NCBI GenBank assembly: GCA_048882505.1 | Contig: JBHLRO010000015.1 | Location: 64,391-94,706, forward strand | Source of the DNA: Candidatus Thorarchaeota archaeon | GTDB lineage: Archaea > Asgardarchaeota > Heimdallarchaeia > Hodarchaeales > Hodarchaeaceae | DNA: 30,316 nt | Reading direction: 5' to 3' | Shown: one piece after another, positions 364 to 19,082 of the stretch | How positions within the stretch are numbered: the first letter of the stretch is position 1 | Layout of the letters: every line of letters begins with the position of its first letter | Notes under the pieces: generated by a model | Database searches by the model: none | What the model saw: the letters and a program-made list of their open reading frames with translations, nothing else | What the model was told of the DNA's origin: nothing | Translations under genes and position numbers: made by a program

Positions 364-2952
364 TTGACTTTTAGTCTACGAACCAGTCTATTAAAAGCAC
401 AAAATCGAACGGAAGGACTCTTTATAACCTTGATCTCCTTCGGTTTGGCTCTTATAACGATGGTAATTATCCTTTTTTTATTTAGCCTAGCAAATATTCG
501 ATATAACATCAGTGAAATCATTAATAATGCATTTATTGGCATTATAATCGATGAAAGCGGGGCTATCAATTTTGCCAGTATATTTGATGCTTTCCGTTGG
601 AGTTTACCTCTGGTTCTGACTGGCCTGTCAGTCGCGATTGCGTTTCGTGCCGGAGAGTTTAATATAGGAGGACAAGGACAAATGATCGTAGGAGGGGCAT
701 GGTCAGGGATCTGGGCAGCAGCTCTGGTACCCAACATAGAATTTCTAAAATTCCTGGACACCCCGATTTTGATAATTCCATCGACTCTTCTAGTCGGTAT
801 TATAGCTGGGGCAATTTGGGGAGGTATCCCAGGCTTATTAAAAGCATATACGGGAGCTCATGAAGTTATTACTACAATATTGATGAATTATGTTGCTTTT
901 GAATTTATCTGGTTTTTAATAGGAAGCGATACTGCACCCTTTGTCGATAGGACCGTTGGAGGAGATGCTTACGGTCAAACAGGCCCAATCTCCCATTCAG
1001 CAATTATCTTTCCGATCGATTCCTCGATTAATACTTTCTTAAGTTGGACTATTCTTTTCGTCATATTAACAGTCATTGCGATGTTTTTTGTGCTTTGGAG
1101 GACCAATTTAGGGTTTAAAATTCGTGCAGTTGGCTTTAGTAGTACGGCGGCACTAGCTGCTGGAATAGATAGCAAAAAATTAACGTTTATAGCAATGGCG
1201 ATTGCAGGTGGCTTGGCAGGTCTGGCTGGCGCAATTGGAGTCATTGGAATTCCTCCTTATAGATATGTTTTCAGATCAGAGGGTACTGCAGGTTTTGATG
1301 GAATTGCTGTTTCATTAATTGGTCAAAATAACCCATTCCCAATCGTGTTAGCTGCAATCTTCTTTGGATTTTTGACTCAGGGTAAGATAAACCTGGATAT
1401 AAAAACTGATATGCCATCAGAATTAATAGATTCGTTACTAGCTGTTGTTATATTGTTTGTAGCAGCTCCCGTAATTGCTAGTGCGATATATAAAAGAATT
1501 GCAAAAGTCTATGAAGTTAGAAAGGTTAGGGACATCTTTAGAAGAGAAAATATTGAAAAATTGTCTGCTGATGCAATAAAATATACAACTGATCTAATTC
1601 AGCGTTATTGGCTCTTGGTAGTTTTTGGAATTCTTTTATTAACTATTTATCTGTTTAGAATAGATATTGGGGCGGTTCTTTCTTTATCTATTGTCTTGGG
1701 TCAATTTATGGTTGGTTTAATGCCAATGACCGCGTTATTTGTGCTTCTAATGCCGATTACCTATCTGGGTAGAAAGGTCTTAAATTCCAGAGAAAAACTT
1801 CGATCTGGCCAACCTCAGAGAAGACTTATCTTTATTGTTGGTATTATCCTCGCCCTTTTTGAATTATCTACCATTATTATATTTGCATTTGCCTTGGCCA
1901 CAGGGGTTTCAGCAGACATAATCGATTTTCATTTTGATGTACTGAGAACCCTAGTTTCTACACTGACATTTAAGAATATGTTGAGATTAGGTTTTCCGAT
2001 TATGTTTGCAGCAATGGCAGCCACCTTTAATGAACGATCAGGGGTAATTAACATCGGTCTTGAGGGAATTATGCTGTTTTCAGCGTGGGGTGGAGCATTT
2101 TTTACTTTTGCATCAGGCGGAGACCCTTATGCAGGAATATTTGGAGGGATACTCTTTGGTACAATACTGGGTCTTGTACATGCCATTTTTACAATAAGCT
2201 TTAAGGCAGAGCAGATCGTCACGGGTGTGGCGATTAATCTATTTGCTTTAGGAATAACTGACTTGCTTACATTTGTAATTTGGAATCAAAGAGGAGGTTC
2301 TCCTACATTACCCAAATTTCCAAATTTTCTCCTTTCTGATATTCCAATATTAGGCGATTTTTTAGGTTCCCTGCAATTACAAAACTTCTACGGAGTTATC
2401 CTCGTTGGCGATCTCGATCTCCTTCGACTGATCCCCGACCCTCTTGCAATAATAAACAATCAATCAGTATTCTTGCTGACAGGATTGCTATTGATACCCG
2501 TTTGTCACTTTCTTCTCTTTCACACAACCTTCGGTTTACGTCTGCGGGTAATTGGTGAAGAACCTCAATCTGCCGCAACAGCTGGAATTCCCGTGAGAAA
2601 GTACCAATACATAGCTGTCATTTTCTCAGCGTTCTTGGTTTCAATAGGAGGTATATTCTTACCAATAGGGGATCAAAGCTATTTTTCATCAAATATGTCT
2701 GGAGGAAAAGGGTTTATCGGACTAGCTGCTATGATTTTTGGAAAATGGACAGTTATTGGGAGTGTTCTCTCCAGTTTGTTCTTTGGATATTTCTTCAGTT
2801 TGGCTGTTCCCATAAAATTACTCGTTCCCACGGTACCGCAGGACTTTTTTGATGTTTTGCCTTTTATCATAGCCATATTCACCTTGGCTGGAGCTATTGG
2901 ACTGGCAAGACCTCCAAAATCGATTGGCAAGCCCTACGACCCACAAGAATAG
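364..2952 (+). CDS. Nucleoside ABC transporter permease, two BPD_transp_2 permeases fused (NupB/YufP-like + NupC/YufQ-like)
   Basis: 862 aa, highly hydrophobic. The first half has AFRAGEFNIGGQGQ and GFKIRAVG; the second half has ERSGVINIGLEG and GLRLRVIGEEP...GKGFIGLAAMIFGKW. TTG start after AAGGAG. Confidence 0.9.
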   Translation: MTFSLRTSLLKAQNRTEGLFITLISFGLALITMVIILFLFSLANIRYNISEIINNAFIGIIIDESGAINFASIFDAFRWSLPLVLTGLSVAIAFRAGEFNIGGQGQMIVGGAWSGIWAAALVPNIEFLKFLDTPILIIPSTLLVGIIAGAIWGGIPGLLKAYTGAHEVITTILMNYVAFEFIWFLIGSDTAPFVDRTVGGDAYGQTGPISHSAIIFPIDSSINTFLSWTILFVILTVIAMFFVLWRTNLGFKIRAVGFSSTAALAAGIDSKKLTFIAMAIAGGLAGLAGAIGVIGIPPYRYVFRSEGTAGFDGIAVSLIGQNNPFPIVLAAIFFGFLTQGKINLDIKTDMPSELIDSLLAVVILFVAAPVIASAIYKRIAKVYEVRKVRDIFRRENIEKLSADAIKYTTDLIQRYWLLVVFGILLLTIYLFRIDIGAVLSLSIVLGQFMVGLMPMTALFVLLMPITYLGRKVLNSREKLRSGQPQRRLIFIVGIILALFELSTIIIFAFALATGVSADIIDFHFDVLRTLVSTLTFKNMLRLGFPIMFAAMAATFNERSGVINIGLEGIMLFSAWGGAFFTFASGGDPYAGIFGGILFGTILGLVHAIFTISFKAEQIVTGVAINLFALGITDLLTFVIWNQRGGSPTLPKFPNFLLSDIPILGDFLGSLQLQNFYGVILVGDLDLLRLIPDPLAIINNQSVFLLTGLLLIPVCHFLLFHTTFGLRLRVIGEEPQSAATAGIPVRKYQYIAVIFSAFLVSIGGIFLPIGDQSYFSSNMSGGKGFIGLAAMIFGKWTVIGSVLSSLFFGYFFSLAVPIKLLVPTVPQDFFDVLPFIIAIFTLAGAIGLARPPKSIGKPYDPQE

Positions 2953-3024
2953 TAAAAATAATGTTTAGGGCTATTTCTTAACCAGTATTTTTCATAATAC
3001 TGGAATATCTTTTTCTCCATATAC

Positions 3025-3969
3025 TTAGAAGGGAATTGGACTATATCGTGCCCCAAACCCTTTGCAGATCTCGCTTCCTAGTTTGACTCCGAGTTCAACA
3101 GATTTTGGGATATCTCTTTCCAGGGTGGTATATCCAGTGATAAATCCAGCACAAAATCCATCCCCGGCTCCAGTGGTGTCTATAACTTTTATTTTAGGGG
3201 CTGTTATGTGGCCTTTCATATCTTTCGTGACATAATAACATCCGTTTTCTCCATCAGTAATTAATACCGTATGCAATTGGGGGGACTCCTTTATTAACTG
3301 TAAACCTACCTTGCTGCACTCAAATCCGACGGAATGTTGAACAAGCAAGTGGAATTCATCACGATTTCCGATTAAAATGTCCGTAAATGGCAGAATTCCT
3401 TTGATGATTTCATCCCTACAGTTTTCAACCGTTGTAAATGAAGCTAGATTAAATATTACTTCAGGAGACTTTTTTTCTTGTTGTTTAACATGTTGAAATA
3501 ATCTCATCATGGTACTTTTGACGGGGTCTTTTTCCAACGTATACGCTGAGGTATAAATTATACTGCTCTGGAGCATTTGCGTGAGGGGAAGATCTTTCCA
3601 AAGTAACTCGTTTTGTGATTCACCATTCAAAACGAAGGATCTTTCTCCGTTAGGTTCGATTATGGCTAAAATTGAAGCAGTGGGGTAATCTTGAGACTGT
3701 TTTAGAAAACAATTAACTCCTACCTGTTCTAAATCACTACGTAGAAACTCTCCCATGGGATCTTTTGCAATTACCCCAAGAAAGGAAACTGGTCTCCCTT
3801 TAACTGCAAGCCAATATGCCACATTGGCAGCATCTCCACCCCCACACATCACTAAATCTTGAGATTGTATACACCCCCCGATTTTTGTGGAAGTTTCTTC
3901 CAAAGTGGCCCGACTGATGAAAATATCTACAGATATGTGGCCTAAACAAAATATCCTGTCACTTAACAT
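3025..3969 (-). CDS. PfkB/ribokinase-family carbohydrate or nucleoside kinase
   Basis: GGDAANVA substrate-site motif and DTTGAGDGF PfkB signature; lies in the nucleoside cluster. Confidence 0.9.
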   Translation of the reverse strand: MLSDRIFCLGHISVDIFISRATLEETSTKIGGCIQSQDLVMCGGGDAANVAYWLAVKGRPVSFLGVIAKDPMGEFLRSDLEQVGVNCFLKQSQDYPTASILAIIEPNGERSFVLNGESQNELLWKDLPLTQMLQSSIIYTSAYTLEKDPVKSTMMRLFQHVKQQEKKSPEVIFNLASFTTVENCRDEIIKGILPFTDILIGNRDEFHLLVQHSVGFECSKVGLQLIKESPQLHTVLITDGENGCYYVTKDMKGHITAPKIKVIDTTGAGDGFCAGFITGYTTLERDIPKSVELGVKLGSEICKGFGARYSPIPF

Positions 3970-12603: not shown

Positions 12604-12822
12604 ATGCCTCAACCATTAGCAGTATTGGAGAAAAATCTCGGGAAAACCATCACAGTGCGCCTTAAAAGCAACCATAATTTCACAGGACGTCTCAAGGTTA
12701 CCGACCAATATATGAATCTAATTTTGCAGGATTGTTCAGAAGTTCAAGACGGTAAGATGACGAAACGGTATGGAAAGGCATTCTTACGGGGGAACAATAT
12801 ATTATTCATAAAATTAGATTGA
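12604..12822 (+). CDS. Sm-like (Lsm) RNA-binding protein
   Basis: 72 aa: PLAVLEKNLGKTITVRLK...GRL...DQYMNLIL (Sm1) and FLRGNNILFI (Sm2). Confidence 0.95.
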   Translation: MPQPLAVLEKNLGKTITVRLKSNHNFTGRLKVTDQYMNLILQDCSEVQDGKMTKRYGKAFLRGNNILFIKLD

Positions 12823-13031
12823 CCATCGCCTGCTGGGCCTATTATTAGCTAATTTTGGACCCTTAAAGCATCAAAAAAGCAAATTATTTGAAATCATCGT
12901 CTAATACACTCACAATCTAGTTGGGGTCCTTGGCCCAGAACGACCTGTTTGGGTTTTTCCTTGTTATCCAATGATTTTAATTCATTGCCATTCACTGATT
13001 TACAATCGAAATTATGATAATTTATGAATTA

Positions 13032-14027
13032 TCATGATAATGACAGTGGCTTTACCCGTCTACGGATGTATTCTTGTCGGTCAAGGATGATTTCTTTGCC
13101 GAAATTACCTGTAACTCCCTTTCTCTCTATTAATAGTGAGGATAGACTTGATCCGAAGGCAATTGCGTCCAATTCATTATGATGAGACACATAATGGGCC
13201 ACGAACGAGTAAAGGAACACATCTCCAGCGCCCGTTTCATCACTAACCATAACATTCTTGTAGGCTGGAATTGAGTGGAAATTGAGATTTCCGGTATCCA
13301 GCGATCTAAATCCCAGTACCGCGCCTTTGGATCCTCGTGTCAAGAGAACAATTCTTGTAGAGGACTCGAGAATCTGTTGAATGGACTGAAGAAGATTATC
13401 TCCTTTTCCTAGGTGCTTGACTTCGATTTCTGAGATTTTCAAGCAATCGACGTGACGCAAGATTTCTGGTTCGAACCATTTTTGGAGGATAATCCGTCCT
13501 TCGGGAGTGAGGAAACGAAAACACCCTTGGGGGTCAAATGCGATAAAGCCTGTGTTTTTCCTCAAAAAACTAAAGATTTTTTCTGAACTAAATTCATGGT
13601 AAACAGATCCAATTACAACCGTCGGAGGAATGTCAAACTTCCACGGAAATTCCGTTGGATCGAATAACTGTGGGGGGTTCCTGAGATAGATCCTTCTCTC
13701 CGAGCTGTTCTTCAGATATTCCAAACGAAATTCAGGACAGGTGTCCCGTATTCTGAGGTTCTTCAATAATGGATTTACGCCGGAAATAGAACGTAAAAGA
13801 TCAATCGCTTTTTGACACGAGTACGCATATACTATTGGAGGGAATGCCCAGGGGAATAGTTGAGAGATGCGAAGACCCGTAATTAGGCTGAATGCAGGAG
13901 GTCCACCAATAGTGAACTTCCTTGGAAGCTGTCGGCTTTCAGAGAAGGAATGCTGATTGGCCTGCTGATGCAATACCGTATCTAATACTATTTGGCCAAT
14001 ACTAATAATCGGCGGAGTTAAGTTCAT
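13032..14027 (-). CDS. PfkB-family carbohydrate kinase (divergent archaeal subgroup)
   Basis: GGPPAF, AFDPQGCFR, LKISEIE, LTRGSKG and DETGAGDVF motifs. Confidence 0.85.
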   Translation of the reverse strand: MNLTPPIISIGQIVLDTVLHQQANQHSFSESRQLPRKFTIGGPPAFSLITGLRISQLFPWAFPPIVYAYSCQKAIDLLRSISGVNPLLKNLRIRDTCPEFRLEYLKNSSERRIYLRNPPQLFDPTEFPWKFDIPPTVVIGSVYHEFSSEKIFSFLRKNTGFIAFDPQGCFRFLTPEGRIILQKWFEPEILRHVDCLKISEIEVKHLGKGDNLLQSIQQILESSTRIVLLTRGSKGAVLGFRSLDTGNLNFHSIPAYKNVMVSDETGAGDVFLYSFVAHYVSHHNELDAIAFGSSLSSLLIERKGVTGNFGKEIILDRQEYIRRRVKPLSLS

Positions 14028-14114
14028 CGAGGGCCCTCACTTCTATGGCCCTTAAGATTATAATCCCGACTAAGGTAATAATTCATGTAAACTCGTAGAA
14101 CAGTGTTCATCCCA

Positions 14115-14275
14115 AGGTTCTTAATAAAGGAAGGTTTATTAAAACTTCATAAACGGGGACATTCTGAACAGTGATTGGGATCACTTCATAGAAAAAAGAC
14201 CAAGGGTTTTCATTCAATACCTGCGTATCGGTTTTTATGAAGGTGGAATAATGGCATTCGCGCTGACCGTTGAAC
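14115..14275 (+). repeat. Left copy of a diverged direct repeat (promoter-like box + leader + first 8 codons of the Roadblock gene)
   Basis: 14115-14143 matches 16201-16229 at 28/29; 14154-14175 matches 16240-16261 at 20/22 with identical spacing; 14251-14274 matches 16343-16366 at 20/24, and both encode MAFALTVE. Confidence 0.9.
14129..14143 (+). promoter_or_regulatory. Putative BRE/TATA promoter (copy 1)
   Basis: Purine-rich GGAAGG followed by TTTATTAAA, ~110 nt upstream of an SD-like GAAGGTGG and ATG 14251. Confidence 0.5.
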
Positions 14276-14337
14276 TTTCTAGCGTTATTCACAGAAAGCG
14301 CTTAAATAATCTAGATAATATGAGAAGTGTTGTCTAA
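14251..14337 (+). pseudogene. Truncated Roadblock/LC7 5' stub (MAFALTVE + 20 unrelated codons)
   Basis: First 8 codons are identical in amino acid sequence to 16343-16366, preceded by an SD-like motif. Homology stops abruptly after GAAC at 14275. Confidence 0.8.
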
Positions 14338-14424
14338 TTCTGGCACTAAAAACCCTGTTTTTTCGTTATTACTAGCCCTTAGAAGCAAACAGTTCTGTCA
14401 CACGATAGTCTTGGATTTGACATA

Positions 14425-15501
14425 TCATTCATGGTAAATCTGTATGACTTGACCATTCAGATTGTTTTCAATAAATATGAAAATACAAAAACACTCGTTT
14501 AGAGACTTCGGATAATAATTCAATATCTTCTCGTCATCTCTGTATTGAATTTTGACCAGTAGTCTCTGATTGTCATCAAAACATACAGTACATCGTTTTA
14601 TAACACGATCATGAAATATATCGAACCTTGTAGCATAAGCCTCTTCGACCTTTAAAAGAGTGTAAATCCATTGTTTAAGTACTTCATAGGAGTTTGTATT
14701 CGGGATTGGCATGAAATGCCCCAATGGTGCATAAACAGCGGGGAATCTTTTTTCAGCTCGATCGTCAAAAAAATGGTTCATCTTCCATTCGACTGTCGAT
14801 ATTTTCTCATGTCTCCAAAGAGGCCTCCCCGTATATTTTAAGGCCGTGTCTCTTTCTGGTCGTTTTTCTCCCAAGTGAAATAGCTGGCATAGGTGTTTAT
14901 AAGACCCCTTTAAAGACAAATCGGGAGACGGATGCTTCTTTTCAACCAAGGTAAGCCTCCCATCCGACCCATAGTTTAAATGACAATATAATGAATTTTC
15001 TATATCTGATCCTTGAAAGATTTGGAAATTGACATTTCCAATAAAATTATCCTGAATGATGCGACGGACTTCATCAATAGAATTCACGAAATCAACATAT
15101 GGTCTAATGATTTCAGGTATCACATATTCCTTCGATATCACCGAACGGTTAAACCTAGACTGCGTAGAATCTGGACTCCATGTTTTGTCAATCCAGTGGA
15201 CACCTGGTACCAGATCGAGGAGATAAGAGTCAGGAGATAGTTTTCTTCCCGATTGTAAAAGTTCCCAATACATCCCTTTTATGTAATAATCATATATACG
15301 GATCTTATCTAAAGTTTCACCTGGTATCATAGAGCTTGCGCCTTTAGGAGACTTAATTGTTAATGCAGAACAATAAGGCGGATTCTCTCCCGTAGCGTAA
15401 CTCTCTTCATACTGCTTCCTGAATTCTGCTAAGTACGCATCCGAAAACGTATCCAAATCAGGTTCCAGATAAAATTCTAAGAAAGAAAACTGTTTTGTCA
15501 T
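14425..15501 (-). CDS. Hypothetical protein (358 aa), possibly containing a central SCP2-like fold
   Basis: Long ORF with ATG start. The segment VNFQIF...YCHLNYGSDGRLTLVEKKHPSPDLSLKGSYKHLCQLFHLG loosely resembles the SCP2 PD.T(L/I).GS pattern. Confidence 0.7.
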   Translation of the reverse strand: MTKQFSFLEFYLEPDLDTFSDAYLAEFRKQYEESYATGENPPYCSALTIKSPKGASSMIPGETLDKIRIYDYYIKGMYWELLQSGRKLSPDSYLLDLVPGVHWIDKTWSPDSTQSRFNRSVISKEYVIPEIIRPYVDFVNSIDEVRRIIQDNFIGNVNFQIFQGSDIENSLYCHLNYGSDGRLTLVEKKHPSPDLSLKGSYKHLCQLFHLGEKRPERDTALKYTGRPLWRHEKISTVEWKMNHFFDDRAEKRFPAVYAPLGHFMPIPNTNSYEVLKQWIYTLLKVEEAYATRFDIFHDRVIKRCTVCFDDNQRLLVKIQYRDDEKILNYYPKSLNECFCIFIFIENNLNGQVIQIYHE

Positions 15502-15749
15502 TCTTCATTCCGGCATTAAAAAAGATATAAGTGTTTTTATAATAATGTGGCTGTTATACATATTGATTGCCCCTTATATAGGGTTTGTCGTGGGTGTAAT
15601 CGTGGTATTTTCTGCTTAAAATCCTCCAAACACCCCTTGACTCGTGTTTTTGGTGCATTTTAATGACTCGACCAGAGGATGAAGGGGAGCCGTCTGCGGG
15701 GTGAATCTGATTGGGATCTGTGATATAACCCTGGTTAGGAGTAGTCCTG

Positions 15750-15923
15750 TTAATTCTTGTGGAACCCTGCTACCATCACCACAAAAAACTTCTCATTTTG
15801 GATAAGTTTGAATAGGATGGCTGTTGAATCTTGGCCCGCGCCAAACGAAAGCAAGGTCAGTCCCTGTTCTGGTTCGGGGACGTTGACGAAATTGGAGAGT
15901 CGGGTTTGACGCTTAATGGCCAT
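15750..15923 (-). pseudogene. N-terminal fragment of a PP-loop (HUP / PAPS-reductase-like) protein
   Basis: ATG at 15923 after GGGGAG gives MAIKRQTRLSNF...LTLLSFGAGQDSTAILFKL (SxGxxDS PP-loop). The frame stops after 57 codons, far too short for the fold. Confidence 0.6.
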
Positions 15924-16200
15924 GGTCAGTTTCTCCCCAGAGGCCGTTCTTCGAGCTTCACCATGGACGGATCTGCCGCCTCTGTTTTCCCAATTCGAAG
16001 CTGATTGAATTTTCATGAAGGAAGGTATTCCACCAGGGAACCCTCGCGGGTATTTGGTGCCCTGAAACATCAGGGGATAGGTGTTCGAGTAGGATATAAG
16101 ATTTAATGTGGAAATTCTTCCTTAATTTCAAGGTAATTGGATGATATAGGTAATTGTCAAGATCCCACACGATTGCCAAGCGAAGGGACAACGGTTCCCT

Positions 16201-16367
16201 AGGTTCTTTATAAAGGAAGGTTTATTAAACACACCCACGCGGGAACATTCTGAACCGTGATGACAAACGCCTTACAGAAAATTTCCGTCCTGTAGGGTTT
16301 ATTTATCAAATAACAGCCTCTAAGGCGTCCAAGGGTGATTTAATGGCATTCGCTTTGACGGTCGAAC
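16201..16367 (+). repeat. Right copy of the diverged direct repeat (functional promoter/leader/start of the Roadblock gene)
   Basis: See left copy. Offset is 2086 bp at the upstream blocks and 2092 bp at the ATG. Confidence 0.9.
16215..16229 (+). promoter_or_regulatory. Putative BRE/TATA promoter (copy 2) of the Roadblock gene
   Basis: GGAAGG-TTTATTAAA, identical to copy 1; SD-like AGGGTGA before ATG 16343. Confidence 0.55.
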
Positions 16368-16777
16368 AGAAGAAGAAACTAATCAAGTTATTACAGGAAA
16401 TAGTCCGTTTTGCAGATCTAGAAGCTCTCGCACTTGTAACAAGAACTGGGATGAGTGTTGCGTTTTTCTCTGAAAAAGATGCAGATCCGGATCTTTTCTC
16501 AGCCTTATCTGCTGCGGTGCTGTCTACTGGTGGGATGGTCGTGGATAGGATGGAGCATGGCCAACTTTGGGAGGTGCTAGTTCGCGGTGAAAGCGGATAC
16601 ACTGTGTTGAGTTCTGCAGAAGATTTCATATTGATCGGAGCATCAAACGAGGCCCACTCGTTGGGGCTCGCAGTTCGGGTCCTTCGACGATACTCTCGTA
16701 AGATTCCCGAGATATTCAAAGAAGAGGAAAAGGACATTAGCTCCTTGGTCTCAGAATTGAAGGATTTACTATCTTAA
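16343..16777 (+). CDS. Roadblock/LC7 (MglB-like) domain protein
   Basis: EALALVTRTGMSVA...LFSALSAAVLSTGGMVVDRMEHGQLWEVLVRGESGYTVL...SLGLA is the typical Roadblock pattern. Confidence 0.9.
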   Translation: MAFALTVEQKKKLIKLLQEIVRFADLEALALVTRTGMSVAFFSEKDADPDLFSALSAAVLSTGGMVVDRMEHGQLWEVLVRGESGYTVLSSAEDFILIGASNEAHSLGLAVRVLRRYSRKIPEIFKEEEKDISSLVSELKDLLS

Positions 16778-16797
16778 AGAAAGCGGAACGACGTATA

Positions 16798-17463
16798 TTG
16801 GCTTCTCTTTTTTTCTTTTTATTTATTCTAGATCTAGCCTTTCTAACGATCATCAATTCAATTGATGGAGCTATCCTACTCATTCTGATTGTTCCTTGGA
16901 CATTTGCAATCTATGGGGTTCTTTGTTTTCCAGGCTTTCGATTTTCAAGAGCTGATATCCTCCATCATATGACAGGGAGGCTTTATTGGCTCGGAAAAGG
17001 GGCGTTCCAGTCTACATTAATTGCCGTTTTTAATCTTATGAGTGTTGGAATCTTGGTCTCCGACCAGCAGCTTGCGCAAGTCGATCGTTATCTCGGGGGC
17101 GTTACCTCCCTTCTCATCTTGCTTTTTTTACCTCTTCCAGGTTTTCTAATCCTTTCGCTCAAACAGGAAGATATGAAACGCGTTAGCGATCTCATATATC
17201 GAGAAATGACAGACCAAGGAGAGGTGCCCGCCTTTCTTGGGGTGATGGCTGAACTCTTAAGAACATCTGATAGATTTTCTGAGGTTTTTCGCTCACAACT
17301 CGATATTGTCCTCCAGGATTCGTCTCGGTTTCTCAAAGCGAATTTCCAAGCAATTTCACCATATTTTAGTCAGGATTTGGCATTTCATCTCAGTCTCGAA
17401 AATCTTGTCGTTCTCTTAACAAAAAAAGTCTTTGCTCCTGAAATCCGCTCTGAATTCGGTTGA
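16798..17463 (+). CDS. Hypothetical membrane protein (about 4 N-terminal TM helices + soluble C-terminal domain)
   Basis: Hydrophobic segments in aa 1-120; starts 20 bp after the Roadblock stop. Confidence 0.7.
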   Translation: MASLFFFLFILDLAFLTIINSIDGAILLILIVPWTFAIYGVLCFPGFRFSRADILHHMTGRLYWLGKGAFQSTLIAVFNLMSVGILVSDQQLAQVDRYLGGVTSLLILLFLPLPGFLILSLKQEDMKRVSDLIYREMTDQGEVPAFLGVMAELLRTSDRFSEVFRSQLDIVLQDSSRFLKANFQAISPYFSQDLAFHLSLENLVVLLTKKVFAPEIRSEFG

Positions 17464-17630
17464 GATTTCCCAGCTCGATGTGTTTGGTTTTTACGGCTAA
17501 AATTTAAAATTCAAGGCAAAGGTGGGGGGAAACAGTAGCAAGGAACGATTAAGTTTCACATCTAAATTTAGGAGTATTGAAAACCAGCTAAATTTTTAGA
17601 ATGGGTTCATTTAAACAGGGTGTAACCTTT

Positions 17631-17909
17631 ATGGGTAAAAAACGTAAATCCGGTGGAAGAAGTAAAGGTGGGAAAGGAAATCTCGGTAAGGTTCAGTGTT
17701 CCTCATGTGGGCGTCTAGTTCCGCGGGACAAAGCGAAACGAAAGACATCATACAAATCATTGGTTGATTTCTCGGTTGGGAAGGAACTACGCCAAAGCGG
17801 TACTCGTATAGCTCGTGTTCCCTACGTTCGATATTTCTGCGTTTCGTGTGCTATTCATAGACATCAGGTAAAGATCCGATCTGCTGATGAACGAAAGTCT
17901 GGTAGGTAA
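17631..17909 (+). CDS. rps26e: 30S ribosomal protein S26e (eS26)
   Basis: KKRKSGGRSKGGKG...VQCSSCGRLVPRDKA...YFCVSCAIHRHQVKIRS. Start placed at ATG 17631 by similarity to the family N-terminus. Confidence 0.95.
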   Translation: MGKKRKSGGRSKGGKGNLGKVQCSSCGRLVPRDKAKRKTSYKSLVDFSVGKELRQSGTRIARVPYVRYFCVSCAIHRHQVKIRSADERKSGR

Positions 17910-17963
17910 GCCAGCCATCCCAAAACAATTTTTAACATATCCAGAATTTACAAATTTTCGGGT

Positions 17964-17985
17964 GGAAAACCTCCGGTTTTCCTTT
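17964..17985 (+). terminator. Hairpin + T-run downstream of rps26e
   Basis: GGAAAACC-TCC-GGTTTTCC perfect 8-bp stem followed by TTT. Confidence 0.35.
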
Positions 17986-18063
17986 CAAGTCTTAGTTATT
18001 TCTGAGTTGAAGGAATCGAACTTTGGTTCTAGTTCCATCATAATGAAGTTTGTGGTTTATGAA

Positions 18064-18138
18064 GGGCTCGTGGCTCAGCATGGATAGAGCATCTGGCTTC
18101 GGACCAGAGGGTCGTGCGTTCAAATCGCACCGAGCCCG
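18064..18138 (+). tRNA. tRNA-Arg (anticodon TCG), intron-less, CCA not encoded
   Basis: Acceptor GGGCTCG/CGAGCCC, anticodon arm TCTGG-CTTCGGA-CCAGA, T arm GTGCG-TTCAAAT-CGCAC, discriminator G. Confidence 0.95.
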
Positions 18139-18155
18139 TTTTCAAATCACGCCAT

Positions 18156-19082
18156 ATGTCACCTCGTTCACATCTCAGTAAGGCTTTTGGAGCGAATTTC
18201 GTGTCACATAAGAAGCTTCTCTGGCTTGAACACACTCATCGATGCTGTGATTGTCCTTCGAACCATTTGAATTGCTTAAGTGCGAAAGAATGGACAAAAC
18301 ACATGATTGGGGTATGGGAATTCCGTTATGAGAAGCGAGACATACGTGATAAAAAGATACACCCTGCTAGCTTCCCGATTTCCCTTGCTAAGAAGATTAT
18401 CTCGACCTATTCACACATGGGCGAAGTAATACTGGATCCATTCAATGGTGTGGGTACAACGCTCGTAGCCGCAAAAGATCTCCAAAGACATGCCCTTGGA
18501 TTCGACCTCAATCCAGAATATTGTAGGATTGCCAGGGAACGTATTCAAACTCCAGTTCTCACAGATTTTTTTGAAGGTTCGGAGAATCAGCTCCGCTATG
18601 AAGTCATTAATGATGATGCAATGAATTTACTTGATTATATTCCTCCCAGGTCAATAGATTTGGTTGTAACCAGTCCACCGTATGCAAACATCCTTGACAA
18701 GGAACGTACTAACAAGAGTAAACATTCCACAAAGCGAAAAGATTCACGCTTAGGTATTAAGGAACAGTATAGTGACGATAATCATGACTTGGGTACTCAA
18801 ATCCCGGGGGTATTCATTGTTACGCTTCAAAAGATTTGTTCAAGGTTATTGGAAGTTCTTAAGCCGAAAAAGCGGTTGATCATTAATATTAGGGATGTGG
18901 TTCCTTTTTTCATTCAGCCAGCATTGGTCCCTTCTTTGGAAGAAGTAGGATTTAGTCTAAAGAATATTATAGTGTGGGATAAAAGACCACTCATTCAAAA
19001 TATGGGAATTTTTGGTTGGCCGTCCAATTTTATTGTGCTGAACAGTGCGTATGAATATATTTTCGAGTTTACTTCTCAATAG
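18156..19082 (+). CDS. Solitary N4-cytosine/N6-adenine DNA methyltransferase (permuted motif order)
   Basis: HPASFP, ILDPFNGVGTT (motif I), GFDLNPEY, VVTSPPY (motif IV) and NIIVWDK. Start moved downstream of the tRNA (ATG 18156 or GTG 18201). Confidence 0.85.
   Translation: MSPRSHLSKAFGANFVSHKKLLWLEHTHRCCDCPSNHLNCLSAKEWTKHMIGVWEFRYEKRDIRDKKIHPASFPISLAKKIISTYSHMGEVILDPFNGVGTTLVAAKDLQRHALGFDLNPEYCRIARERIQTPVLTDFFEGSENQLRYEVINDDAMNLLDYIPPRSIDLVVTSPPYANILDKERTNKSKHSTKRKDSRLGIKEQYSDDNHDLGTQIPGVFIVTLQKICSRLLEVLKPKKRLIINIRDVVPFFIQPALVPSLEEVGFSLKNIIVWDKRPLIQNMGIFGWPSNFIVLNSAYEYIFEFTSQ

Follow-up and report, generated by a model that had tools for sequence, protein, structure and literature searches.

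A 2.1-kb foreign tract brings an accessory gene and a new promoter and 5′ end to a Roadblock gene in a Hodarchaeales archaeon

The Roadblock/LC7 gene analysed here lies in a window of 30,316 nucleotides, by which we mean the whole stretch of DNA under study (contig JBHLRO010000015.1, positions 64,391 to 94,706, of a Candidatus Thorarchaeota archaeon placed in the Hodarchaeales, hereafter G000). The promoter, leader and first codons of this gene are present twice, as a left copy (L) and a right copy (R) that bracket 1.9 kb of DNA. Comparison with related genomes identifies R and the bracketed DNA as foreign, with a boundary inside the Roadblock coding sequence (CDS). The features that define the locus are given below.

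13032-14027, minus strand: pfkB-family kinase gene (PF00294), native gene on the left, oriented divergently to Roadblock in every relative
14110-14275, plus strand: L copy, consisting of the native promoter block, the leader and the first 25 nt of Roadblock, now a stub
14276-16195, minus strand: cargo, without counterpart in the pfkB-Roadblock interval of any relative
16196-16390, plus strand: R copy, consisting of a foreign promoter block, leader and Roadblock codons 1-16, the present working 5′ end
16343-16777, plus strand: Roadblock/LC7 gene of 144 amino acids (aa; PF03259), chimeric as DNA with its protein unchanged
16391-16428, plus strand: switch stretch of 38 bp, identical in G000 and its nearest relative, where foreign sequence gives way to native

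The original prediction, made on this DNA alone, had reported three collinear blocks recurring about 2.09 kb apart. These were recovered as parts of a longer repeat of approximately 166 bp (14110-14275 in L, 16196-16367 in R), which is collinear and identical at 111 of 165 positions (67%). Block 1 (14115-14143 vs 16201-16229) matches at 28/29 positions and block 2 (14154-14175 vs 16240-16261) at 20/22; in L and R alike, the two blocks are offset by 39 bp. The start codon blocks (14251-14275 and 16343-16367) both encode MAFALTVE and differ at four positions, all of them synonymous (Nei-Gojobori sd=4, nd=0). The spacing from L to R is 2086 bp at blocks 1 and 2 and 2092 bp at the starts, the R leader is 6 nt longer than that of L, and the Shine-Dalgarno (SD) context differs (GGGTGATTTA in R). 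Searched against all 4.3 Mb of the genome, the left 201 bp finds just one other match, made up of its first 66 bp (E=1e-11) and the collinear start block, and with this single partner genome-wide the repeat is not a chance resemblance. The open reading frame (ORF) starting in L ends after 28 codons (14251-14337), and R continues into the intact gene, the product of which matches PF03259 over residues 16-99 with 30.5 bits (gathering cutoff 23).

The pfkB-Roadblock interval was compared across a same-genus set of 21 genomes, 20 of which have this Roadblock orthologue. In all 20, pfkB (minus), Roadblock (plus) and a membrane protein gene are adjacent, with a pfkB-Roadblock gap of 165-490 bp that contains neither the insert nor its gene, orf358, and the same gene order is found on a Logan contig from a further lineage. 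The cargo DNA is absent from 20 same-genus genomes, a genus-wide DNA search returning G000 only. The empty site that had been anticipated is therefore found in 20/20 relatives, and a full-length tandem Roadblock paralogue at the left position, named at the time as the sign of simple paralogue decay, occurs in none of them. A distance of 223 bp separates the ATG codons of pfkB and Roadblock in G016, the nearest relative, and the L ATG occupies exactly this position in the window. The G016 sequence aligns in two segments, 1-1525 with window 12750-14275 and 1360-3432 with 16196-18274, a single 166-bp segment thus matching both L and R.

The two copies differ strongly in their similarity to G016, with 158/166 identical positions (95%) for L and 114/165 for R. 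As L is far closer, L is the native copy and R the foreign one, in keeping with the earlier suggestion that the left copy represents the displaced native start. Flanking identity to G016 is 90-97% up to 14275 and 93-96% from approximately 16400. The Roadblock genes of G000 and G016 differ at 14 positions within gene nt 12-48, as against 20 over the other 387 nt (Fisher p=1.7e-6), and at gene nt 26-48, beyond the repeat end, 9/23 positions differ (p=5e-6). The synonymous divergence (dS) between the two genomes is 0.24 in the rest of Roadblock and 0.22 in pfkB. The divergence ends at gene nt 48, and G000 and G016 do not differ again until nt 87; the 38 identical bp at 16391-16428, which occur once and are not duplicated, would be the site of a homologous crossover. 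Judged by these comparisons, the foreign tract starts at 14276 and extends to at least 16390, R being in frame with the native gene body. Native gene nt 26 to 48-86, approximately 23-61 nt, has been replaced, hence the event was not a simple insertion. No significant Roadblock similarity was found after 14275, and a pfkB remnant was looked for upstream of R, with none found.

On the same evidence, R arrived after the split of G000 from G016. No deletion between L and R could turn a G000-like structure into the G016 arrangement, because G016 is L-type through nt 21 yet unlike R at nt 26-48. The longest runs identical between L and R are of 20 and 13 bp, within the promoter block and at the ATG, and around both runs L is native-type on both sides and R foreign-type on both sides. 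At its inner end the repeat lacks an identical core, GAAC being all that the copies share there. The proposal of an insertion at codon 8/9 that supplied a replacement promoter, leader and N-terminus is thus borne out. The accompanying argument, that synonymous-only divergence means both starts were once functional, also holds, with the amendment that they were functional in different lineages.

As to where R came from, its blocks 1 and 2 are shared only by a clade made up of G000, G016 and a lineage sampled in JGI metagenome 3300041085 (contigs L065 and L066; hereafter the J lineage), while the upstream region differs in the rest of the genus and keeps just AAGGTTTA(A/T). The spacers and leader of R are farther from L than are those of the orthologous J lineage. 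The restriction of the blocks to this clade, together with the greater divergence of spacers and leader, places R on a deeper branch of the same clade. The Roadblock protein is 99% identical to that of G016 and 95-97% identical to those of the other 19 same-genus genomes with an orthologue, and the neighbouring pfkB and 221-aa membrane proteins are just 30-48% identical in the genus outside the sister species (pfkB is 92% identical to G016). To judge from these values, constraint on this Roadblock paralogue is exceptional. The names carried by homologues indicate a Hodarchaeales/Heimdallarchaeota genome. The local gene order is LSm, pfkB (minus), Roadblock (plus), the 221-aa membrane protein, ribosomal protein S26e, a DNA methyltransferase and elongation factor 2 (EF-2).

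The cargo has a GC content of 39.9%, compared with 42.2% in the flanks, and can be divided as follows.

14276-14424: 3′ flank of orf358
14348-14363, both strands: oligo-T tract, AAAAACCCTGTTTTTT, separating the L stub from the 3′ end of orf358
14425-15501, minus strand: orf358, intact accessory gene that belongs to a very rare family
15502-15775, minus strand: conserved non-coding element upstream of orf358, with its counterpart at L052:10650-10933
15776-16195: orphan DNA, including most of a 106-codon ORF (15750-16070, minus strand) without homologues

Searches of 5.8e9 and 1.8e9 proteins yielded four relatives of orf358 (P0003-P0006), and none was found in the viral contig or genome contig sets or in 82 other genomes of the class. 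A paralogue with 55% aa identity is present in G000 itself on contig C23, at the contig end of an island of approximately 10 kb (C23:32400-43129, L052) that is absent from G016. This island also carries a 1394-aa beta-propeller/immunoglobulin-like protein, a 929-aa protein and a rhodanese, and on a Logan contig a fragment of the 929-aa protein adjoins an orf358 homologue. No Pfam, PHROG or NCBIfam match was obtained for orf358. Its AlphaFold2 model has a pLDDT (predicted local distance difference test) of 59.8, and weak Foldseek matches to SCP2-like proteins over residues ~125-292 (E 5e-3 to 1e-2) make such a fold a faint lead, on which we base no assignment. A language model pointed to N-terminal nucleophile (Ntn) hydrolases (C45/CBAH; score 0.93, on few shared features). 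This annotation was discarded, since Cys44, the would-be N-terminal residue, is not conserved among the five members of the family.

The approximately 320 nt upstream of orf358 (15480-15800) align with the region upstream of the paralogue at 86% mean column identity, compared with 69% over the wider, mostly coding DNA match. No conserved reading frame was found in this element, nor any Rfam match in 14000-16500. Possible identities are a structured leader and a small RNA, the two sequences being too few to judge covariation. The orphan DNA has no DNA or translated match elsewhere in the genome. A motif noticed by eye in the 106-codon ORF ('LSFGAGQDSTAIL') had raised the possibility of a PP-loop protein, which was discarded as no Pfam match was found even at E<=10. 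Over the whole of 14276-16195, Pfam, PHROG and NCBIfam searches recognised no integrase, transposase or mobility remnant, the orf358 paralogue is the only translated similarity to the rest of the genome, and no terminal inverted repeats were found at 14276/16195. The insert as it stands does not have the traits of an insertion sequence or transposon: there is no transposase and no exact short target-site duplication, and the flanking repeat is 166 bp long at 67% identity.

The best-conserved block of both copies contains a palindrome.

14121-14142 (R counterpart 16207-16228): palindrome of 8-6-8 structure, TTAATAAA-GGAAGG-TTTATTAA, within block 1

It lies at the position expected for a divergent pfkB/Roadblock promoter, and its right half, the AAGGTTTA(A/T) mentioned above, is kept upstream of Roadblock across the genus. 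The palindrome may therefore represent the back-to-back TATA boxes of a bidirectional promoter, driving pfkB leftward and Roadblock rightward, as opposed to a recombinase site. The native leader contains a 43-nt stretch, ACCTGCGTATCRGTTTTTATGAAGGTGGAATAATGGCATTCGC (window 14208-14263; G016 L013 ~1458-1512; L065), that is identical in G016 and the distant J lineage, has one change in the L copy of G000 and is absent from the R leader. It holds a 4-codon mini-ORF (ATGAAGGTGGAATAA) with a TAA stop that overlaps the main Roadblock ATG, and ACCUG/AAGGU pairing within it could mask the SD sequence. Predicted folding of the L-type and R-type leaders was found to be no better than that of shuffled sequences (z = 0.16, -1.05, 0.25).

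The gene encodes an unchanged protein and would now be transcribed from the promoter copy in R and translated with a different leader. The old L promoter block probably still serves pfkB and fires into the 28-codon stub, convergent with orf358. If the TATA reading holds, the stub transcript may run into the oligo-T tract, which would act as a two-way archaeal terminator, and R would drive Roadblock rightward and possibly also the cargo strand leftward.

Genome self-comparison for nearby diverged direct repeats revealed the same architecture elsewhere in G000, and three of the loci were analysed.

Case 1, C2:361621-361746 / 363525-363650: last ~125 bp of an aldehyde dehydrogenase gene, around a 550-aa helix-turn-helix (HTH) + LAGLIDADG protein
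Case 2, C2:117968-118036 / 119864-119932: end of a Hel308-like helicase gene, around a 492-aa PMT_2-like membrane protein
Case 3, C6:96793-96852 / 98827-98886: end of an MFS transporter gene, around a 522-aa NosD/beta-helix protein

In each case, the 3′ end of a gene is duplicated around a single-gene insert of 1.8-2.0 kb, and G016 has a single copy and no cargo. The stub is closer to G016 than the other copy in case 1 (105/125 vs 92/125) and case 3 (53/59 vs 48/59), and the copies in case 2 are about equally close (48/68 vs 46/68). The cargo inserts of the Roadblock locus and cases 1-3 have no common termini and are unrelated to each other, and two of those in cases 1-3 have a markedly higher AT content than the flanking DNA. 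Close to the insert, the flanking sequence of cases 1 and 2 has also diverged further from G016 than is usual for the region, suggesting longer imported tracts. The recurrence at three more loci suggests a common route of gene gain in this genome, although the self-comparison detects only events that leave a duplication and is silent on the frequency of insertions without one. Other nearby diverged repeat pairs in G000 lie at C3:32144-33801, C11:117274-119478, C37:2594-5514 and C52:5050-7675.

A second unusual arrangement at the Roadblock start was found in the J lineage. Contigs L065 and L066 overlap by 113 identical bp, so they represent one genome, the assembly of which breaks inside Roadblock; its pfkB is 68% aa identical to that of G000. 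The promoter and leader are L-type, with 43 nt before and into the ATG identical to G016, and the first start (L065 reverse complement ~3000-3260, L066 continuing) reads MAFALTVEPKKA-stop. At 21 nt after this stop, GGTGATTTA-ATG presents the unusual SD context of R, followed by MAFALTVEQKKK... into a full Roadblock gene. The two starts lie 60 bp apart and differ at 6/25 nt, all synonymous. This tandem may stem from an older structure that both lineages share, from an independent second exchange or from a hotspot of recombination. In yet another lineage (Logan contigs ERR10503087/ERR10503260, pfkB 64% aa identical), a 43-aa ORF ends 10 nt before the Roadblock ATG and could be another stub.

With reasonable though not firm confidence, we interpret the Roadblock locus as a homology-anchored capture of a relative's DNA, by one crossover in the Roadblock CDS and one non-homologous joint at codon 9. 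Recombination with the locus of a related lineage, which had been listed only as an alternative in the original prediction, is the best fit to the data. After the split from G016, some 2.1 kb (14276 to ~16390) would have been captured from a member of this Hodarchaeales clade that is less closely related, and would have comprised orf358 with its conserved upstream element as well as the donor Roadblock promoter, leader and first 16 codons. At the right end, homologous recombination would have taken place in the very conserved Roadblock CDS, within the 38-bp stretch 16391-16428. The donor promoter and leader, at only about 65-70% identity to the native ones, were probably too diverged for pairing and so would have entered as heterologous DNA along with the cargo. 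At the left end, a non-homologous joint after native gene nt 25 would have cost the gene about 23-61 nt of its own sequence and left a stub beside pfkB that comprises the old promoter and leader together with 8 codons. Homology-facilitated illegitimate recombination (HFIR) with displacement of a gene end has been described (PMC5361080, PMC3240628). It requires one boundary inside sequence homologous between donor and recipient, here between gene nt 48 and 87, and a non-homologous second boundary, usually with a small loss from the recipient, here the stop at 14275. The product would be equally expected from HFIR or from one-ended break repair on a homeologous template followed by end joining. 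In a close variant, a small circle would have integrated by a single homologous crossover, with a later deletion in the stub.

Several observations weigh against such a capture. The donor locus was not found in two metagenome contig scans (one with a Roadblock 26-mer specific to the clade, the other with a degenerate pattern for R-type starts), the genus DNA search or protein searches, and as a result the 3-10 bp of microhomology expected of HFIR at the left joint and the native arrangement of the donor cannot be checked. The patch at nt 26-48 is a Lys/Leu codon run that varies among lineages, which makes it strong evidence for the extent of the tract and not proof. The 60-bp tandem of the J lineage occurs at the same site, its downstream copy bearing the R-type SD sequence GGTGATTTAATGGC, and hints at a shared older structure or a hotspot, beyond a one-off event. 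Immediately after the left junction, 14276-14288 (TTTCTAGCGTTAT) matches nt +153-166 of the G016 Roadblock with one indel, as do 0.14% of random genomic 13-mers; the stub may once have been longer, as Campbell-type or att-type integration predicts. Finally, in case 3 a core of 36 identical bp precedes 24 diverged bp of gene end, which would also fit an att-like or Campbell-type event.

The last two points would also be in line with a decayed site-specific integrative element of the e14/phage-21-icd kind, the attP arm of which carried the replacement promoter and 5′ end, and which later lost its integrase, its att core and stub nt 26 onward. The empty sites in relatives are likewise expected under this model, as is a gene-restoring architecture with a working copy borne by the element, a displaced native end and no differences other than synonymous ones, an architecture of the kind reported for e14 icd/icdC (PMC13626634). 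However, neither an integrase nor any other mobility gene or remnant was recognised in 14276-16195, the inner repeat end has no identical core, the 38-bp switch region is single, and an extra deletion has to be assumed. The foreign tract overruns the repeat by at least 23 bp into the gene, which would not result from crossover at an att core sited at the repeat's end. The four loci involve four different targets, unrelated cargo and no common ends, and the Asgard integrative elements described so far target tRNA genes and are much larger (PMC8813620). We therefore consider such an element unlikely, and the original view of the insert as a formerly self-mobile integrative element was not upheld.

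An old tandem duplication in situ, of the promoter and 5′ end or of the whole gene, followed by divergence, insertion of cargo between the copies and loss of one copy in G016, would amount to paralogue decay. It could draw on the J lineage, in which an L-type stub precedes an R-type-like start 60 bp downstream (L065), so that both types occur in two lineages, and on the 43-aa ORF just upstream of Roadblock in the third lineage. Nevertheless, G016, with L-type sequence through nt 21 and 9/23 differences from R in nt 26-48, cannot arise by any single deletion between L and R, and the pattern is the reverse of decay in that the working R has diverged while the useless L is 95% conserved. A tandem paralogue is found in 0/20 genus genomes, at least 4 events are needed as opposed to 1-2, and the stub could not be modelled as a heavily deleted full-length Roadblock, its collinear-island alignment being no better than those of random segments. 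This scenario is very improbable in our view. An assembly chimera of two co-occurring strains or species is less credible still. The genome was assembled from short reads into scaffolds in which 77-bp overlaps lie on either side of 100-N runs, the conserved Roadblock CDS could allow a strain switch in the assembly graph at the right boundary, and the J lineage assembly does break inside Roadblock with its 113-bp overlap between contigs. The region itself contains no Ns, and at 14275/14276 native G000-type DNA is joined to unique cargo with no repeated k-mer. As a de Bruijn assembler cannot invent such a join, the left junction must be real in some genome with a G000-type left flank. Comparable structures exist at three other loci, and the 60-bp version occurs in an independent assembly. 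A strain switch at the right boundary could in principle have occurred, but the structure would remain. The exact 77-bp duplicates around 100-N runs at C4:20016, C9:123817, C12:109846, C20:64456, C31:12391 and C45:5084 are scaffold gaps and not biology.

Hodarchaeales is the Asgard order discussed as closest to eukaryotes. The locus provides a cleanly polarised instance of recent gene flow between diverged lineages of this order, with the empty site in the sister genome and the native sequence still beside the insert. Under the capture we favour, recombination anchored in a very conserved gene has imported an accessory gene and replaced the promoter and leader of a core gene, leaving the protein untouched. 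The four loci offer concrete junctions to follow in population metagenomes. The presence of four such loci in one genome, and of the 60-bp duplication of the Roadblock start in a related lineage, could also be read as regular single-gene acquisition in Hodarchaeales. Cassettes of about 2 kb would then arrive at conserved gene ends and bring replacement ends with them, moved by an unrecognised recombinase acting in trans or as small circular DNAs integrating by short homology. We think this quite unlikely; if true, promoters of core eukaryote-signature genes could be swapped between lineages as a side effect.

The locus resembles several known systems in part. Archaeal integrative elements of the SSV and pNOB8 types target tRNA genes. 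The Asgard integrative elements HeimV1 and the aloposons, the latter carrying giant genes, are likewise found at tRNA genes (PMC8813620). As in these elements, direct repeats of the target flank lineage-specific DNA at the Roadblock locus; the tRNA target, the tyrosine recombinases and the exact att repeats are all absent. The closest parallel in architecture is provided by e14 and phage 21 at E. coli icd, where, according to PMC13626634 (citing Hill et al. 1989), the insert supplies a gene end that keeps the gene intact, a native stub remains at the far side and the differences are mostly silent. In that account e14 is 15 kb in size, has an integrase, an identical att core at which both gene copies end and SOS-inducible excision, and replaces the 3′ end of its target. 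The Roadblock insert is 2.1 kb with one gene, has neither an integrase nor a core at the repeat end, and replaces the 5′ end and promoter.

In terms of process, the best match is with HFIR and gene-end displacement as described for Acinetobacter, Streptococcus pneumoniae and E. coli (PMC3240628, PMC5361080), where one homologous anchor lies in a conserved gene, the rest of the exchange is non-homologous, no integrase is involved and events recur at several loci. In the T6SS (type VI secretion system) effector-immunity arrays of Vibrio cholerae and in the C-terminal displacement of rhs genes (PMC3240628, PMC5361080), the resident end likewise survives as an orphan fragment. In those cases it is a variable 3′ toxin domain that is displaced, whereas here it is a 5′ end with its promoter, in an Asgard host; in addition, the donor promoter and leader are homologous to the native ones yet probably too diverged to pair, hence the appearance of a duplication. 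We read the insert as a recombination scar, which reveals neither a new kind of mobile element nor a new molecular machine. Its mechanism is ordinary in kind and unusual in detail, namely in the replacement of a 5′ end and promoter, in the Asgard host and in its recurrence within one genome.

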